The notes below the pieces were generated by a model, which searched no databases, was not told the DNA's origin, and saw only the letters and a program-made list of their open reading frames with translations. From positions 1-38,370 of IMG/VR virus record IMGVR_UViG_2645727901_000003: a stretch of 38,370 bases of DNA. The stretch is one strand, 5' to 3'. This document shows, one piece after another, positions 3,941-36,035 of this stretch. Numbering within the stretch: the first letter of the stretch is position 1; each line of letters starts with the position of its first letter. The position numbers and the translations under genes are program-made. The DNA comes from a virus (taxonomy: Duplodnaviria > Heunggongvirae > Uroviricota > Caudoviricetes).

Positions 3941-4912
3941 ATGGTTGACATGAAAATTACTATCTGGGAAGGCTGTGACCTCACAGTTGCAGCTGCAATT
4001 AAATTATTTGTAGAGCGTAGTTATCCGTACTCCATATTTTCACGGAGGTATCCAATACTGCGTCTCATACAGGAAGTTATTGATCCAGCAGTAGCTGCTT
4101 ATGTAAATTCCCTGCCACCAAGTCATAAAGACTACATTTCTGGAGTAAATCTAGGATTTAGTGATGTACTTAAAAAAGTGGGCTTAAACGTCGTAGTACA
4201 GGCACAAAGACTTCTTTTGCGTAATTTCGTTCTGACTTTAGATCAACAAACTTCTCTTGATAAATGCTTTACCGCTACGATTGAGTCTCTTATTGAATTA
4301 GTCAGTGAGTGCGCATCCAAGCGGCCGAAGAAATCCTCTCCTGCAAAAGGAGTAACTATAAATTCACAGCGTAAGCTCGGTTATTGCGAGTTCTGCGGTA
4401 ATCTAACCGAATTTTCCAAGTTGATCAGTGAGATATCAGAATTTGTTGCTAACGATAATGAGTTCCCCGTTCATGAAAAACAGGTCCTTAGTCATCGATA
4501 TTGTTCTGACCATAGGCCCAAACTCACCAATGGTCTATGGAATCCCAAATACAGACAAGGAAAGCGGTCTCTCGAACAGTTCAATAAAGAATTAATAAGG
4601 CTTAGACGGCAATGCGCTAAACCGCATAAAGCTAACGCAAACACAGGGGATATATTGATTGATACCTATTTTCATGAGTGGATGCAGGGTCAAACTTTAA
4701 CCCCAGCAGATCTAGATAAACTTAGGAATATTGCCAGACGAATGGTTGACTCCAAATTCACTGATACTAAGAAAAAAATAATCATATTAAAACACCAAGG
4801 TTTTAACCAGTTTGAAACCGCACAGGTTTTAGAAAAAAATCACTACACAACTATGACAAAGCAGGCTGTGTCCAAGGCCTTAGCGTCTGTGAGGAAAGAA
4901 TTTTATATTTAA
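3941..4912 (+). CDS. Hypothetical cargo protein with Cys-containing central region and C-terminal HTH-like segment
   Basis: AT-rich ORF; GYCEFCGN...YCSDH; C-terminal FETAQVLEKNHYTTMTKQAVSKALASVRK helix-turn-helix-like; start uncertain (ATG 3941 or GTG 3848). Confidence 0.4.
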   Translation: MVDMKITIWEGCDLTVAAAIKLFVERSYPYSIFSRRYPILRLIQEVIDPAVAAYVNSLPPSHKDYISGVNLGFSDVLKKVGLNVVVQAQRLLLRNFVLTLDQQTSLDKCFTATIESLIELVSECASKRPKKSSPAKGVTINSQRKLGYCEFCGNLTEFSKLISEISEFVANDNEFPVHEKQVLSHRYCSDHRPKLTNGLWNPKYRQGKRSLEQFNKELIRLRRQCAKPHKANANTGDILIDTYFHEWMQGQTLTPADLDKLRNIARRMVDSKFTDTKKKIIILKHQGFNQFETAQVLEKNHYTTMTKQAVSKALASVRKEFYI

Positions 4913-5337
4913 AATAGTATATCCACGAGCTATTATGGTGGCAGTTTAAGTCTTAATATCATCCACTTTATTGAATTATAACCAGCCACTTACGAGGGTT
5001 TTTCGCGATTACCCTGCTTCAAATTGATGATTTTGAAAATACAGTATTATAGTTTATTGTTTGTAGCGCAGCTGTAAGCGTTATGCAAAACGGATCACAG
5101 TGATACTACCTCACCAGTAAATCACTGAAGCCGATCTGTAATGACATAGAACGAATTGGTTTTATGGTTATGCAATGGCTCATCCCCTTACTTGTCCCTG
5201 ACCATAAAAAGCATTCGCTTTCCTGAAAGCAAGTCTAAGCCAAGGGGCGTTTACAGTTGTCTTCTCTTGGCTCATTAGGTACTGGCTTAATTATTAGAAT
5301 CATGTCGGTGGCATTTAAGTCCAAATATGCCCAAACT

Positions 5338-5350
5338 TTTAGCAGCTAAA
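5338..5350. promoter_or_regulatory. KorB operator-like palindrome, centre variant TTTAGCAGCTAAA
   Basis: Perfect 13-bp palindrome differing from OB consensus only at the central base. Confidence 0.45.
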
Positions 5351-5489
5351 ATTCGTCTTCTCATGTAGGGTCAAGAAGCTTATGACTTAACCTATTGATT
5401 ATGTGAATTACCTTGTGAGTATTACTCGTAGGATGGAATCTTCCAAAACTCTGACAATTCACTCTGAATGCATGGTAACAAAGAACAGT

Positions 5490-6119
5490 TTAAACCATGG
5501 TCTGTTCAGCGTTAAATTTCTCAAGATAGACTTCCATTTCGCGAGTCCACCTAGGGGTAGGTACCGAGGTGATCATTAGCCAAGGAAACCACCATACAAG
5601 CATGAAGAGTAACATAAGCGGTGCGATCATTTCGGCCGAAGAATGAGAAACTATATACATAATGAATAAGATTAGTAGAACTGTGTTTACAATCTGACCT
5701 ACCAGAAAAAGACGCCAGCGAAAACAATGCCATTTCCTGTTGAACACAATCCGTCCATCCCGTTCTTCGAGCCAGTTACGCCACGGCTTGAGATAACCAG
5801 CCCGCAACCCATAACGATCACACATTATTACAGCCAAATCCTGCAGCCGATAATTATACAAGCCTGTGAGCCGATAAAGGCTGCGCTGACGAAGCTCACG
5901 CTTTGCCAGACGGACCGCATTTTTATTCAAATATGGCTGTGTCAGCATTTGCTCTAGCCGGCGCTTCCTAAGATTGAGTAGTCCACGAAATACACTTCCA
6001 GATTCAGCATTAATTACTCTGTGACGAACTACACCGAGTGCAATATAGATACACAGCAATAGCCAGCCGGTCTTAGGGTATTGATTCATCCATTGTATAA
6101 TTACAGACAACTCAGGCAC
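5490..6119 (-). CDS. Hypothetical membrane protein (cargo)
   Basis: 209 aa; hydrophobic N-terminal segment and two C-terminal TM-like segments flanking a basic soluble region; AT-rich; GTG start with AAAGGA Shine-Dalgarno (alternative ATG at 6089). Confidence 0.45.
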   Translation of the reverse strand: MPELSVIIQWMNQYPKTGWLLLCIYIALGVVRHRVINAESGSVFRGLLNLRKRRLEQMLTQPYLNKNAVRLAKRELRQRSLYRLTGLYNYRLQDLAVIMCDRYGLRAGYLKPWRNWLEERDGRIVFNRKWHCFRWRLFLVGQIVNTVLLILFIMYIVSHSSAEMIAPLMLLFMLVWWFPWLMITSVPTPRWTREMEVYLEKFNAEQTMV

Positions 6120-6242: not shown

Positions 6243-7433
6243 CTACTTACTAGTCCATTCATCAATCATATTCGCCCAATCTTGTAGCATCTCGGCCCTC
6301 TGCTCACGATATTCAGCCTTGTTATAAACAGCTCGTACCCCCTTTTGTTCATGGGCAAGGCACTTCTCAATCCAGTCAGTATTGTACCCGGCCTCATGTA
6401 GCAAGGTGCTGGCAGTACGCCGTAAGTCATGGGGACCAAACTTAGGTAACAAGTCCCCTTCTTTCTGAGCCAGACGATACGTCAGTGTCAAAACCCGGTT
6501 TAAAGTAGCGCTACTCATTGGCGCATCGGAATCGTACCGCGAAGGAAGGATAAAATCAGAGCTACCGGCAAAGGTTTTGAGAGCAATCATAATATCCATT
6601 GCCTGTCTGGAAAGAAAAACCAAATGTGGATTACGTCGTTTCATCCTCTCCTTTGGTATCGTCCATAATGCCTCACTAAAATTGATCTCGTTCCAGGTTG
6701 CGTTAGTAAGCTCACTTTTACGTACCATCGTTAACAGCAAAAGTTTAACCGCTGCTCTGATTGATGGCGTCGTTCCTACCCGTTCCATGTACCGATACAT
6801 CAGACCAATTTCAACTGGCGTCAATGCCCTGTCACGAGGCTCAAATTTCGCTATGCTTGCAGGCCGTACCAGATCAGCGGGATTCTCAACCTTCTGACCG
6901 CGCTCAATAGCCCAGCGATAGACTTGCAATACAATCTCTCTGGCGTGCACAGCTGTCGCCGGTGCCCCTCTCTCGACAATGTTATCGGTTAATGCGCGTA
7001 AGTCTTCATGTGTAATCTCGGTCAATTTCTGCTGCGCAAATTTTGACTTCAACTCCCTTTGATATACCGAACGCCGCATATCACGCGTCGATTCAGCCAT
7101 TTGATAACCGCGTAACCATTTCTCAGCCCATGCACCAAAAGTCTCCGCATCTTTGATACGAGCTTTATCTCTAGCTTTTTCCCTCGCTGGCGATCTTCCA
7201 CTGGCAACCATTTTTTTAGCTTCATGGAGCCGTTCACGCGCTTCTGCAAGCGTGATCCCTCCAACACCATAGCGGCCAAAAGTAACGGTCTCCTGTCTTC
7301 CGTTTATTGAATAGTTATAACGAAATGAAATAGTTCCAGCCGGAGTGACCGCAACATACAGACCATCACGGTCATTAACTTTATAGAGTTTCTCCTTCGG
7401 CTTAAGGTGACGCAGCCTGGTGTCAGTCAACAT
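6243..7433 (-). CDS. int: Tyrosine site-specific integrase (P4-type phage integrase family)
   Basis: 396 aa; N-terminal arm-binding-type domain (LYKVNDRDGLYVAVTPAGTISFRY), catalytic box HDLRRTASTLL and LAHEQKGVRAVYNKAEY. Confidence 0.85.
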   Translation of the reverse strand: MLTDTRLRHLKPKEKLYKVNDRDGLYVAVTPAGTISFRYNYSINGRQETVTFGRYGVGGITLAEARERLHEAKKMVASGRSPAREKARDKARIKDAETFGAWAEKWLRGYQMAESTRDMRRSVYQRELKSKFAQQKLTEITHEDLRALTDNIVERGAPATAVHAREIVLQVYRWAIERGQKVENPADLVRPASIAKFEPRDRALTPVEIGLMYRYMERVGTTPSIRAAVKLLLLTMVRKSELTNATWNEINFSEALWTIPKERMKRRNPHLVFLSRQAMDIMIALKTFAGSSDFILPSRYDSDAPMSSATLNRVLTLTYRLAQKEGDLLPKFGPHDLRRTASTLLHEAGYNTDWIEKCLAHEQKGVRAVYNKAEYREQRAEMLQDWANMIDEWTSK

Positions 7434-31290: not shown

Positions 31291-31307
31291 ATTACCTTTT
31301 AGGTAAT
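31291..31307. promoter_or_regulatory. 17-bp palindrome ATTACCT-TTT-AGGTAAT (candidate operator), copy 2
   Basis: Same half-sites as 12481..12497; overlaps the -35 region of an extended -10 element. Confidence 0.45.
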
Positions 31308-32604: not shown

Positions 32605-32618
32605 TGTGACATGTCACA
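32605..32618. repeat. Palindrome TGTGACATGTCACA (GTGACATGTCAC copy 2)
   Basis: 14-bp perfect palindrome just after the ORF stop and before the terminator. Confidence 0.6.
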
Positions 32619-32970: not shown

Positions 32971-34436
32971 GGGTCGTATTCTGTCAACGCCTTGCCCTGC
33001 TGGCTTTGCTGTCCTGGTATATTCATACGTTTCGACACCGGGAAAGCAAACGTCAGCAGCAGCGCATCACCCTTGCCAGGAGAACGGCCTAACCGCTCTT
33101 TGATATCTTCCTTCGGCTCAATAACTATCTTGCCGTCCACCCTGACTTTGTACTCAGCCGCCGACAGGTCGTCAGCCGTTTCCTGGTCATCCAGTGCGCC
33201 ACCAATTTTCAGCCACGTTTTGCAGCTGTTGAACATCTCGCCGCGCTTGTTGAGCATCTGCGGATCGGTAGAGCCGCCGCCGAAAGGTATCAGTTGCCAG
33301 GAACGGCCCCAGCCATCACCGATTGACTTCAGCCCGGTACCATACCCGAAGTCGATGAATACAGCGTCAGCCTGGTACTGGTCTTCAAAATCAGCGATAC
33401 GCTTTGCCATAATCAGATCATCGGTTGTCTTATTGCCGGTCCATAGCACTTTGCTGTGAAGCCCCTGGCGCAGGTATATCACCGCGTCATCCACACCGGA
33501 ATACGCCGGGTCAACACCGATAATCACCGGAGCGTGCGCCACCTGCCCGGCTGTCACCACGCGCTTCATTGCGGAATCAGTCAGGCCTGTCGGGATAAAC
33601 TGGAGTTCAGACGCATCAGGGAAGATCCCGCGTACACGAACTTTCACGAAGTCGCTATCCTCGCCGTAGTCATCAACCCACTTCTGCAACTGCTGCTTGT
33701 TGGTGCCTTCCACGGTGCGGCTGTCTATCTGCGCGCACTTCCAGCGGTGTTTGTATTTGCGGAAGCATTCACGGAAACGCCCGGTGTTACGCGTAGGGTT
33801 CCCGAACGCCACCCAGATGATTTCGGTGTCTTCGTCCGTCAGCGCACCCTCGGCAACTTCCCACACCAGATCGGCAATGTTGGACGCTTCATCGAATACA
33901 ACGATGATGCGCTTGCGTTCGTTGTGCAGACCGGCGAACGCCTCGGTGTTGTGTTCAGACCATGGAATAGCATCAGCGCGCCAGCGTTTGTCGTGACCGG
34001 GATCGTTGCTGTACATCGCGGTGGCGGTGCAGGTGAACCACTCTTTCGTGATAGCCAGGTTCGACCATTTGATGATTTCAGGCCATGTTTTGGTGCGCAG
34101 CTGGTTGTCGGTGTTGGCGGTCACCACCACCTTGCAGTCTTCACAGGTAGACATGCCCCAGTTGATGAGCATCGAGATGAACGCAGATTTACCGATACCG
34201 TGGCCGGATGCGCGGGCCAACATCAGCGGCTGGTGACGCGTTGCTGGATTCTGCAGGTGATCGCGTATCTCGCGGAATGCGTCTGCCTGCCATTTTCGCG
34301 GGCCGGTGGCATGCGCCAGTTCTGTCCCCTCTTCGCCCCACGGAAACGCATACAGCGAATAGCCCAGCGGGTCATATGTGAACGATGCAATATCCTCGAC
34401 AAGCTGCTCTTCCGGCGACATGGCTGCGGCTGTCAT
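32961..34436 (-). CDS. terL: Terminase large subunit
   Basis: 491 aa; Walker A-like GHGIGKS; ATGA overlap with terS stop. Confidence 0.75.
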   Translation of the reverse strand: MTAAAMSPEEQLVEDIASFTYDPLGYSLYAFPWGEEGTELAHATGPRKWQADAFREIRDHLQNPATRHQPLMLARASGHGIGKSAFISMLINWGMSTCEDCKVVVTANTDNQLRTKTWPEIIKWSNLAITKEWFTCTATAMYSNDPGHDKRWRADAIPWSEHNTEAFAGLHNERKRIIVVFDEASNIADLVWEVAEGALTDEDTEIIWVAFGNPTRNTGRFRECFRKYKHRWKCAQIDSRTVEGTNKQQLQKWVDDYGEDSDFVKVRVRGIFPDASELQFIPTGLTDSAMKRVVTAGQVAHAPVIIGVDPAYSGVDDAVIYLRQGLHSKVLWTGNKTTDDLIMAKRIADFEDQYQADAVFIDFGYGTGLKSIGDGWGRSWQLIPFGGGSTDPQMLNKRGEMFNSCKTWLKIGGALDDQETADDLSAAEYKVRVDGKIVIEPKEDIKERLGRSPGKGDALLLTFAFPVSKRMNIPGQQSQQGKALTEYDPYA

Positions 34437-35026
34437 TCTTCACCACCATCCAGCTCTTTCACGCGACGGCGGGCCTTCGCCATGCGGTCGGCAATGGTGA
34501 CGGTGCCGGAAACCTCCAGGCGCTCTTTGAACGCATTGACGTCGACGTGCTTACCGATAAGCTCGAGGTTCTTCACCTTGTCAGGCCATTTGATTTTTTT
34601 GAGGATTGTTTCTATCGAATCCTCGTTCATATTCATGATGGTCGATGACAAATCGAAACCGCTCAGTGTAGTACGCCATATCTTTGGCCACTCGCGGATA
34701 GGCTTCAGTGTGCCGTCATCGTTCAGGATATCGATCACGTCCATCTGGTCAATTTCCACCAGGCGGAGCAGTACGTAGTCCGCACTGACGCGCAAACGCT
34801 TGTTACGCTCTTCCATCAGTTCGGCGATCCGTTTCTGGATACGCTCATCACGCATCATGACACTGGCCTTGACTGCCGCCGTATTTGGCGAAAATCCTGC
34901 GTTAATCGCTGCCTGAGTCTGATTCTCAGGGCATTTGGTATATTCCTGCGCGTAAGCCTCCTGCATCGCTGTAATTGGCTTATACTGCGTTGATTTGCGT
35001 TTTGGTGCTTTTGGTTCTGCGGGCAT
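34433..35026 (-). CDS. terS: Terminase small subunit
   Basis: About 197 aa from ATG at 35026 (ORF track TTG start at 35074); position and basic/helical character. Confidence 0.55.
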   Translation of the reverse strand: MPAEPKAPKRKSTQYKPITAMQEAYAQEYTKCPENQTQAAINAGFSPNTAAVKASVMMRDERIQKRIAELMEERNKRLRVSADYVLLRLVEIDQMDVIDILNDDGTLKPIREWPKIWRTTLSGFDLSSTIMNMNEDSIETILKKIKWPDKVKNLELIGKHVDVNAFKERLEVSGTVTIADRMAKARRRVKELDGGEE

Positions 35027-35069
35027 TGTTACCACCGAAGTAATAATTACCGTTTTGGTAATAGTAACA

Positions 35070-35098
35070 CGCAAAACAAAGCCGCCATAGTCGGCGGC
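35070..35098 (-). terminator. Intrinsic terminator
   Basis: GCCGCC-ATAGTC-GGCGGC hairpin followed on the minus strand by UUUGUUUUG. Confidence 0.55.
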
Positions 35099-35103
35099 CT
35101 TTG

Positions 35104-35361
35104 CTAAATAAGTTTAAATTCATCGTCAAATGCCTGACCGTTATTAACCATTCCATCATGCACAACGCTGTAGTGCATACAATCGCGGAGAGACATTGGT
35201 TTTTCAAACTCAAGCCAGAAACAATCAACATAAGCCTTACCCAACCAGAATCCTCCGCCATACTCTTTTGCTCGTTGTATTATCAGCCAGCTACCATCTG
35301 GTACGCTTTCGATAAACTCACCCCGATAGATGATCGTGCAATTTGGATTTTTTGACCCCAT
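35104..35361 (-). CDS. Small protein under a LexA box (SOS-inducible; candidate antirepressor or other SOS effector)
   Basis: 85 aa; ATG with GGTGA Shine-Dalgarno; LexA box 18-37 bp upstream; own terminator. Confidence 0.5.
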   Translation of the reverse strand: MGSKNPNCTIIYRGEFIESVPDGSWLIIQRAKEYGGGFWLGKAYVDCFWLEFEKPMSLRDCMHYSVVHDGMVNNGQAFDDEFKLI

Positions 35362-35378
35362 GTTATTTCACCGAAAAT

Positions 35379-35398
35379 TACTGTATAAATACACAGTA
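35379..35398. promoter_or_regulatory. LexA (SOS) box TACTGTATAAATACACAGTA
   Basis: Perfect CTGT-N8-ACAG with TA flanks and AT-rich spacer; TTGACG -35-like hexamer upstream on the minus strand. Confidence 0.7.
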
Positions 35399-35428
35399 CA
35401 ATTGCAATGAAATTCCGTCAACATCTAC

Positions 35429-35440
35429 GTGACATGTCAC
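35429..35440. repeat. Palindrome GTGACATGTCAC, copy 3
   Basis: Overlaps the TGA stop of the 35437..35775 gene in the same register as copy 1. Confidence 0.6.
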
Positions 35441-35775
35441 ACTGATAACTTAGTCTCATGCCAGCCACGTGTCACCCAACATGCTGAATCACCATCACAC
35501 GGGCATGAATCGACTGGCAGCGCATCGTCGCACTTGCCGCAGCGGTTGGTGCTGATTGACTTGATACGGCCACGAACTCGCGCATCATCCTGGCGGATAA
35601 GCAACGCGATGTACTCGCTCATCTCATACGGCGCACGACCAGGGCGCCGGGCGGCGCAGTTCCGCGCCAGCATCTCATGCTCCTGCTCATCGAGTTGCAA
35701 TTCAAGCTTGCGGTTACCAGATTCAGCCTGGCGGGCCCGCTGCGCGGCTTTGCGTTCTGCTGCGGATTTAGCCAT
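35437..35775 (-). CDS. Early-region protein with C-terminal Cys cluster
   Basis: 112 aa from ATG 35775 with GGAGGTGA Shine-Dalgarno; CGKCDD...CPCDGDSAC. Confidence 0.45.
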   Translation of the reverse strand: MAKSAAERKAAQRARQAESGNRKLELQLDEQEHEMLARNCAARRPGRAPYEMSEYIALLIRQDDARVRGRIKSISTNRCGKCDDALPVDSCPCDGDSACWVTRGWHETKLSV

Positions 35776-36035
35776 TACCTCACCTCCAGTCTCCATACCG
35801 CCTGACCAATCCGGCTGGCATGGGTATCTTTAGATACTGTTCCGTCTTTAGCCAGCTCCATAAGAATTTTGCGCAAATCTGCCGAGCGCCATTCTTCATC
35901 AGGAAATTCCTTCTCCATTGCCAACCGCAGATTCCAGGTTGCTATCGTGAATGGATATTCCCCGCCGAGAGCTTTCTCTTGCAGGGCCGCACGGGAACGT
36001 ATCACCTGCAAAACCTTCTCTTTTACATCCATCAT
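35775..36035 (-). CDS. Early-region hypothetical protein
   Basis: 86 aa from ATG 36035 with AGGAGG Shine-Dalgarno, ATGA overlap with upstream stop. Confidence 0.4.
   Translation of the reverse strand: MMDVKEKVLQVIRSRAALQEKALGGEYPFTIATWNLRLAMEKEFPDEEWRSADLRKILMELAKDGTVSKDTHASRIGQAVWRLEVR

Follow-up and report, generated by a model that had tools for sequence, protein, structure and literature searches.

Does a strong LexA box in a prophage point to the switch by which that prophage is induced, or can it belong to a gene that only travels with the phage? This question is raised by a short segment of IMG/VR virus record IMGVR_UViG_2645727901_000003, the whole 38,370-nucleotide (nt) stretch of which is referred to here as the window. 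Just before terS, the gene for the terminase small subunit, the window carries a stand-alone gene for an 85-amino-acid (aa) protein with a LexA (SOS) box upstream of its start codon. A first-pass annotation, made from the sequence by a model, had proposed this unit as a candidate SOS-triggered induction switch or SOS-induced effector. The second half of that proposal is favored by the comparative evidence described below, which points to a LexA-controlled, SOS-induced effector; the first half is not, given that the antirepressor Ant is encoded elsewhere, that the 85-aa gene is sporadic, and that its product is unrelated to Ant. It is likely, in our judgment, that the unit is a LexA-repressed mobile cassette, in which a sigma-70 promoter and a LexA operator are joined to a single small open reading frame (ORF), and that it provides an accessory SOS effector and not a switch. 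The features of the cassette are the following.

35104..35361, minus strand: gene for the 85-aa protein, phrog_2100 / NCBI 'lF-82' (PHROG profile match)
35369..35372, minus strand: Shine-Dalgarno-like GGTG, 7 nt before the ATG (sequence)
35379..35398, minus strand: LexA (SOS) box, TACTGTATAAATACACAGTA, which reads TACTGTGTATTTATACAGTA on the gene strand (sequence, conservation)
35393..35398, minus strand: predicted −10 hexamer TACTGT, made up of the box's first six bases, with a 17-nt spacer to the −35 hexamer (sequence)
35416..35421, minus strand: cassette promoter, predicted −35 hexamer TTGACG (sequence and conserved TTGAC in homologues)

The box spans nucleotides −18 to −37 from the ATG at 35361 and leaves a 17-nt gap to it, which confirms the earlier placement of the box 18–37 base pairs (bp) upstream of the ATG of a stand-alone gene (35104..35361) before terS. 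Its earlier description as a perfect site holds for the coordinates and for the CTGT/ACAG cores, both of which are intact, but not for the operator as a whole, since TACTGTATAAATACACAGTA has two mismatches to the 20-nt consensus. A LexA operator was defined here as a 20-bp TACTGT-(AT)4-ACAGTA palindrome with intact CTGT/ACAG cores and an AT-rich spacer, and the box falls within this definition. A bare CTGT-N8-ACAG motif is expected 0.54 times per window and was found at least once in 44 of 100 shuffled sequences; only one site within three mismatches of TACTGTATATATATACAGTA exists in the window, with none in 100 shuffles, and 35379..35398 is thus the only near-consensus LexA box in the window. 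The heterology index of the box is about 1.45 when calculated with an approximate matrix of ~30 E. coli boxes, making its strength approximately comparable to that of Salmonella sulA, for which an index of 1.49 is given (PMC8072944 Table 1). The 17-nt gap is also typical of proven Salmonella SOS genes, whose box-to-ATG distances are 17 (yebG), 19 (dinI), 15 (umuD), and 21 (sulA) in the same table.

The box overlaps the predicted cassette promoter. Because TACTGT forms the left end of the box, bound LexA would occlude the −10 hexamer together with the start site. Among homologues, TTGAC is found at positions −23 to −19 from the box in 52–61 of 64 distinct upstream regions, and upstream of about −26 the sequence varies with the genomic context. 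The position of the Shine-Dalgarno-like element is occupied in homologues by GGGGTG or GAGGTG.

The conservation of the box with the gene was examined in a sample of 91 loci from genomes and viral contigs, plus annotated phages, which yielded 86 full-length homologues representing 59 distinct proteins of 42–100% identity. A CTGT-N8-ACAG motif lies within 60 nt of the start in 82 of the 86, and these box-bearing copies are distributed over Salmonella, Citrobacter, Klebsiella, Kluyvera, Cronobacter, Pantoea, Erwinia, Symbiopectobacterium, and Serratia hosts. The operators of the homologues are near-consensus, with 0–2 mismatches in most copies, a tightness usually seen in SOS genes for which leaky expression carries a cost. 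In the ORF, the substitutions between alleles fall mostly at third codon positions (e.g., 14/13/49), and synonymous sites are saturated (proportion of synonymous differences, pS, about 0.85; proportion of nonsynonymous differences, pN, 0.17–0.45), a pattern that marks the 85-aa ORF as a genuine coding gene under strong purifying selection. Since the box and the −35 hexamer are kept in 82 of 86 homologues despite the saturation of synonymous sites, this phylogenetic footprint argues strongly that the cassette box is functional and LexA-controlled.

The four exceptions comprise one CTGT-to-CTGC change, two disrupted ORFs, and one group II intron insertion. The last is found in a Klebsiella-type phage (L030, IMGVR_UViG_2590828671_000002), where the intron, at about 4080..5983, directly follows the LexA box and lies in the 5′ untranslated region of the cassette in the gene orientation; it begins with GTGCG and encodes a 495-aa RVT_1 (PF00078) reverse transcriptase, leaving the box and promoter intact 1.9 kb upstream of the cassette ORF. 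Truncated or frameshifted copies, some with partial loss of the box, were also seen at five loci (L008, L011, L013, L014, and L094, from Citrobacter, Enterobacter pulveris, Erwinia psidii, Pantoea, and one viral contig), and the chromosomal ones among them suggest decay in prophage remnants.

How the cassette came to lie before terS can be read from its surroundings. The window prophage is epsilon15-like (Uetakevirus), its gene order running from the integrase (6243..7433) through the structural genes to the early genes at the right edge, with the immunity region placed past 38370, outside the window. The features that flank the cassette are listed below.

35437..35796, minus strand: backbone gene of 119 aa, phrog_536 'transcriptional regulator', last of the early-right operon (PHROG match)
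35429..35440, no strand: perfect palindrome GTGACATGTCAC, which overlaps the stop codon of the phrog_536 gene and forms the left insertion edge (sequence, PAT1 comparison)
35068..35101, minus strand: intrinsic terminator, with the hairpin AAGGCCGCC-GACTAT-GGCGGCTTT (35078..35101) followed by GTTTTG (scan, folding)
35046..35062, no strand: inverted repeat ATTACC-N5-GGTAAT, located past the terminator and before the start of terS (repeat count)
34433..35026, minus strand: terS, terminase small subunit, with its probable start ATG at 35026 (PF03592 2.8e-27, phrog_51)

In Salmonella phage PAT1, which is also a Uetakevirus, the phrog_536 regulator gene is directly adjacent to terS, and the distance between palindrome and terminator is about 25 nt, compared to about 310 bp in the window. 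The window's insert of about 310 bp consists of the −35 hexamer, the box, the Shine-Dalgarno-like element, and the ORF. The terminator hairpin is GC-rich and stable (−18.1 kcal/mol, z = −2.2), and an identical hairpin is located between the same two flanking genes of the cassette-less PAT1; the terminator is therefore a feature of the backbone that has been borrowed by the cassette. The hairpin reported earlier after the ORF is thus present, but it is not the gene's own. Copies of the Cronobacter type do possess their own terminator, CCCGCTTCGGCGGGTTTTTT, which stands right after the stop codon and is retained across differing downstream contexts, and a terminator-like hairpin occurs in 38 of 55 distinct downstream contexts of the homologues. 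An Rfam scan of 34800..35900 gave nothing near any gathering score. Comparison of these loci indicates that promoter, operator, and ORF together constitute a mobile cassette, i.e., a moron, and its distribution indicates dispensability, because the characterized and viable relatives SPC32H, epsilon15, SPN1S, and PAT1 do not carry it.

Carriers belong to at least six backbones, namely epsilon15-like, P22-like, lambdoid, P2/186-like, a Serratia myovirus, and an SSU5-like phage-plasmid. The slots used by the cassette are equally diverse and include the position upstream of terS, the end of the ea region by xis/int in lambdoid and P22-like phages, the nin region, the stretch after tail-fiber genes at a prophage end, a P2/186-like LexA operon, and SSU5-like phage-plasmids. 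A constant partner, either a toxin-antitoxin component or an operon mate, was considered and rejected, as more than 15 unrelated clusters were obtained from the genes downstream. The phrog_2100 family is further present in 431 PLSDB plasmid records, mostly non-mobilizable plasmids of ~105–115 kb from Klebsiella, Enterobacter, and Salmonella, but also from E. coli; these plasmids are read as SSU5-like phage-plasmids, and SSU5 (JQ965645) has a family copy at 88043..88309. On such elements, the box-bearing family may be a near core gene, not a sporadic one.

Within the lineage of the window, the cassette is found in 5 of 31 viral contigs of at least 30 kb whose Rep repressor is 93–100% identical to that of phage SPC32H. 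These five long carriers of an identical or near-identical 85-aa gene have a Rep 97–100% identical to SPC32H Rep, and three of them show Ant on the same contig, each with a good LexA box. In E. coli, the homologue is part of the LexA operon of prophages resembling Cartapus (the LF82 prophage) in 40 genomes, compared to 1134 of 5426 complete genomes that have the CARTA_44-DinI core of that operon. As judged by this distribution, the cassette is an accessory, optional passenger in two lineages with LexA-controlled antirepression and in one with repressor self-cleavage.

The latter statement depends on what acts as the switch in each of these lineages. In SPC32H, the 86-aa Ant inactivates Rep, a repressor that is not cleavable, and LexA represses the ant promoter, according to Kim & Ryu 2013 (J Virol 87:11775) as cited in PMC7380047 and to the KC911856 annotation. 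The counterpart in the window lies far from the cassette.

12573..12833, plus strand: Ant homologue, 81% identical to SPC32H Ant, at the canonical position (homology, KC911856)

The SPC32H-type Rep contains HTH_3 but lacks an S24 peptidase domain, so the suggestion that the phage repressor might lack a self-cleavage domain was borne out; its cognate antirepressor, however, is a different gene from the one first pointed to. The SPC32H-type Rep/Ant pair is the SOS switch of the window's lineage. The 85-aa protein gave no BLASTP alignment with SPC32H Ant and an hhalign probability of 0.2%, the two proteins have different PHROG assignments (phrog_2100 and phrog_450, respectively), BLASTP gave no alignment of the 85-aa protein with Tum of coliphage 186, which joins an N-terminal antirepressor part to a DinI-like C-terminus, and the protein is likewise unrelated to 186 Orf97. 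With a separate Ant, no homology, and a sporadic occurrence among phages with related Rep, the 85-aa gene was rejected as a prophage induction switch of the Tum or Gifsy kind. Downstream of ant, a 232-aa ORF (13140..13838, plus strand) was observed in which a Bro-N domain (PF02498) is fused to a C-terminal Ant-like part; this part belongs to phrog_450 and is 41% identical to SPC32H Ant by tblastn, representing a second, longer Ant-like protein.

The ant operator itself is altered in the window. The site upstream of ant, ATATGTATATATATACAGTG (12534..12553), differs from the SPC32H box, TACTGTATGTTTATACAGTG, by a change of the left CTG to ATG, has four mismatches, and gives an approximate heterology index of 6.9 versus 3.0 for SPC32H, so that LexA control of ant may be weaker in the window prophage. 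The weakened box is viable, since 8 of 80 related viral contigs share this allele. Compensation of a weak ant operator by the cassette was considered and rejected: the eight contigs with the weak allele are not among the carriers, and three carriers have a good ant box.

Two other lineages are informative in the same respect. The P22-like phage SE1 carries a family member, and its repressor combines HTH_3 with Peptidase_S24; being of the self-cleaving type, it needs no antirepressor. Cartapus (L098/L181 in our sample) encodes a 186-type CI (PF07022 + PF16452) and has, after gene A, a LexA operon in the order CARTA_44, DinI, phrog_2100 homologue, and CARTA_47 (1935..3421 of L098). CARTA_44 is a 62-aa protein of phrog_698; the idea that it is a detached Tum N-terminus was rejected for lack of BLAST similarity, and Cartapus has no recognizable Tum N-terminal homologue. 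The frequency of the CARTA_44-DinI core in complete E. coli genomes makes CARTA_44 a candidate antirepressor of Cartapus-type prophages, and the rarity of the phrog_2100 homologue among them implies that the core operon must supply the antirepressor there.

The protein offers fewer clues than its gene. The first-pass annotation recognized no family for it, but residues 1–84 of its 85 match the catalogued family phrog_2100 (unknown function) with E = 2.2e-38, and it shares 98% identity with a Salmonella protein named 'lF-82' by NCBI, a name that derives from E. coli LF82, whose prophage Cartapus bears a homologue (100% DNA match). It is acidic, with a net charge of about −4 by hand count from the translation, and the translation, judged by eye, contains no transmembrane segment. 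The AlphaFold2 model consists of four beta strands, one helix (residues 58–73), and a disordered C-terminal tail, the core (residues 11–70) having predicted local distance difference test scores of 83–91. Although the last 11 residues are predicted to be disordered, F82 and L84 are invariant in the family and F78 is nearly so, giving a conserved tail motif, F78-[DE]3-F82-x-L84, in an acidic context; in this predicted structure, a conserved disordered tail is suggestive of a short docking motif. The sequence E/D-F-x-L-[IV] within it may loosely resemble a beta-clamp-binding pentapeptide.

Scans of the 85-aa protein against Pfam, NCBIfam, and PADLOC returned no match, which includes the DinI family (PF06183); a profile search of PDB sequences returned only noise (E ≥ 0.41), and no fold analogue of the predicted structure was found. 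An exhaustive hidden Markov model search of 1.8 billion representatives showed the family to be small, with 85 clusters at 50% identity, nearly all of whose members are stand-alone proteins of about 40–130 aa; longer matches (185 and 668 aa) were weak and partial, and the search revealed no informative fusion to a known domain. No specific description of the family, or of a LexA-regulated gene at this position, was found in the literature.

Starting from the anatomy, conservation, mobility, and accessory status that emerge from these comparisons, we infer the following course for LexA binding, SOS induction, and mode of action. The cassette is inserted at the boundary of the early and late regions, with the last early gene on one side and the backbone terminator that precedes terS on the other. 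The box, which contains the −10 hexamer and the predicted start (near 35386), would be occupied in the lysogen by a dimer of LexA, so that RNA polymerase is excluded and the gene stays silent. Upon DNA damage, activated RecA (RecA*) would drive LexA to cleave itself, and the cassette promoter would fire within minutes, independently of and earlier than the Rep/Ant cascade, its transcript ending at the backbone terminator. During lytic growth, the 85-aa gene would probably also be read through from the early operon. The product, an acidic cytoplasmic accessory protein and not an induction switch, is expected to act by protein-protein binding, probably via the conserved disordered acidic/aromatic tail. 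Because the host clade and LexA are constant across carriers, whereas the phage type and the repressor are not, the likely target would be a host protein common to Enterobacterales or a generic protein of competitor phages, and the effect would be to prepare the cell, once SOS is induced, for the phage, much as prophage DinI or 186 Orf97 does.

Several points weigh against this account. The predicted −10 hexamer matches the consensus at only three of six positions, which explains why a generic promoter scan of the window did not call the cassette promoter, and both LexA binding and induction by damage are predictions from the sequence. No homology or fold match fixes the function of the protein, the binding of a host or competitor target being argued from distribution. 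The weakened ant box of the window leaves room for a second, compensating SOS input, and Cartapus, with its 186-type CI, has no Tum N-terminal homologue that would be its antirepressor. Some small antirepressors, such as P22 Ant and those of the Gifsy prophages, are active across immunity types. These points lead to the idea that the 85-aa protein is an auxiliary or trans-acting antirepressor that binds its own Rep or co-resident repressors, thereby serving as a second SOS input or coordinating induction as in the Gifsy prophages, an idea that we regard as unlikely. It draws on the likeness to Tum, SPC32H Ant, and the Gifsy antirepressors, which are also small, orphan, mobile, and LexA-controlled (PMC7380047), on the near-consensus boxes, which imply that leaky expression of the 85-aa gene is costly, and on the occupation of the tum position in the Cartapus LexA operon by the homologue. 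It is opposed by the unrelatedness of the protein to Ant, Tum, and Orf97, by the self-cleaving S24 repressor of SE1, by the rarity of the homologue in E. coli, where 1134 genomes have the CARTA_44-DinI operon and only 40 of these carry it, and by the failure of the weakened-ant-box contigs to appear among the carriers. Moreover, phages with the same Rep mostly do without the cassette, including SPC32H, where Ant suffices according to Kim & Ryu 2013 as relayed in PMC7380047.

Other explanations differ in what they make of the promoter and of the protein. The location immediately upstream of terS in the same orientation might suggest an SOS-timed promoter for the terS-terL packaging/late operon with an incidental ORF, but this is very improbable in view of the strong terminator between the ORF and terS, the many cassette contexts that have no nearby terS, and the strong purifying selection on the ORF; in addition, cassette-less relatives express terS from downstream of the terminator, where the ATTACC-N5-GGTAAT repeat sits. 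A chance palindrome beside a spurious ORF, although compatible with the expected number of bare CTGT-N8-ACAG motifs, has a negligible probability and is refuted by the absence of the 20-mer match from all shuffles, the presence of the box in 82 of 86 homologues, the coding substitution pattern, and the PHROG match (2e-38). A special form of the accessory-effector explanation, which we consider possible but doubtful, is that the protein damages the host, either as an inhibitor of growth, division, or replication or as an abortive/exclusion factor, following the logic of SulA, TisB, and 186 Orf97; its release would then be confined to heavily damaged cells. Operators as tight as those of the family, mostly with 0–2 mismatches, are found in SOS genes that are harmful when leaky, such as sulA with its index of 1.49 (PMC8072944), the 186 SOS operon bears the accessory gene orf97, which is annotated as blocking 186 infection, and the possible likeness of the tail to a beta-clamp-binding pentapeptide also speaks in its favor; however, the protein has no transmembrane segment by eye, unlike most SOS division inhibitors and toxins, matches no PADLOC defense model, and has no toxin-antitoxin partner among its variable neighbors. 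Rather unlikely, and offered tentatively, is the proposal that phrog_2100 represents an unrecognized class of SOS-released phage effectors, borne as a portable LexA-operator cassette in at least six temperate-phage architectures of Enterobacterales, whose tail docks on a core host DNA-metabolism protein (beta clamp, RecA*, or a client of the SSB tail) or on many phage repressors. If it were true, acquisition of the cassette would let any prophage act, at an immediate-early stage timed by LexA, upon the damaged cell or upon co-resident rivals.

Two repeated sequences near the cassette deserve mention in their own right. ATTACC-N5-GGTAAT occurs four times in the window (12481..12497, 12864..12880, 31291..31307, and 35046..35062), compared to an expectation of 0.02; the sites lie in the divergent region between the tailspike gene and ant, just after ant, at 31291..31307, and in the gap that separates terS from the terminator. 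The repeat, which is not part of the cassette, probably serves a phage regulator as its operator at the late and ant promoters, the candidates for the regulator being the 119-aa phrog_536 protein and Rep. The palindrome GTGACATGTCAC has three copies in the window (14087..14098, 32606..32617, and 35429..35440), compared to 0.09 expected; two of them adjoin a terminator-like hairpin at a module boundary, and the third (35429) is the one at the insertion edge of the cassette. SPC32H likewise has the palindrome, behind its ant terminator. Binding of a regulator is one possible role, and another is that of a joint at which modules are exchanged by recombination.

Returning to the LexA-repressed cassette as an accessory effector, its implications are mainly cautionary. 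The induction switch of a prophage is not identified by the presence of a strong LexA box, and the box here belongs to a passenger gene; tools that class prophages as SOS-dependent from any box of low heterology index (e.g., PSOSP, PMC12527982) could be misled by such cassettes. The known switch of the phage group is not overturned by the finding. At the same time, phrog_2100 would be a compact, widespread, and apparently unstudied member of the SOS regulon with unusually tight operator conservation, and a natural example of a moron gated by the host repressor and not expressed constitutively in the lysogen.

Among the known systems, SPC32H ant shares with the cassette the Uetakevirus lineage, the size of the product (86 versus 85 aa), the stand-alone gene, and a LexA box about 17–20 nt from the ATG. 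It differs in its locus between the tail genes and the tailspike gene, in its opposite strand, in having no sequence or profile similarity to the 85-aa protein, and in being near-universal in the lineage (238 viral contigs), whereas the cassette is sporadic. The p95-tum-orf97 unit of coliphage 186 has the same layout of a −35 hexamer, a spacer of 17–18 nt, and an annotated LexA site starting at the −10 hexamer. The Cartapus homologue lies inside the equivalent LexA operon, after the DinI gene, and resembles orf97, whose annotation reads 'expression from plasmid blocks 186 infection', in being an accessory passenger of an SOS unit; 186 itself, however, has no phrog_2100 gene, and neither do about 96% of the E. 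coli genomes in which the P2-like LexA operon is found. The LexA-regulated prophage dinI homologues of Gifsy-1, -2, and -3 (PMC8072944) also encode acidic, accessory proteins of about 80 aa and have their box at a distance of about 19 nt from the ATG, and in Cartapus DinI (PF06183) and the phrog_2100 homologue are co-transcribed.

The cassette also resembles the morons. As described by Hendrix and colleagues, these are promoter-gene-terminator units between conserved genes. The cassette likewise separates two genes that are neighbors in a close relative, brings its own promoter, is followed by a terminator, and is found on many unrelated backbones; however, classical morons are expressed from the repressed prophage, whereas the cassette is predicted to be kept off by the host repressor and released by the SOS response, and in the window its terminator is borrowed. 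Collectively, the regulatory design is already known from 186 p95, SPC32H ant, and the Gifsy dinI and antirepressor genes, and the mobile-cassette design from morons, while what appears to be new is phrog_2100 as a LexA-gated cassette across many enterobacterial temperate phages and phage-plasmids, together with the protein itself.

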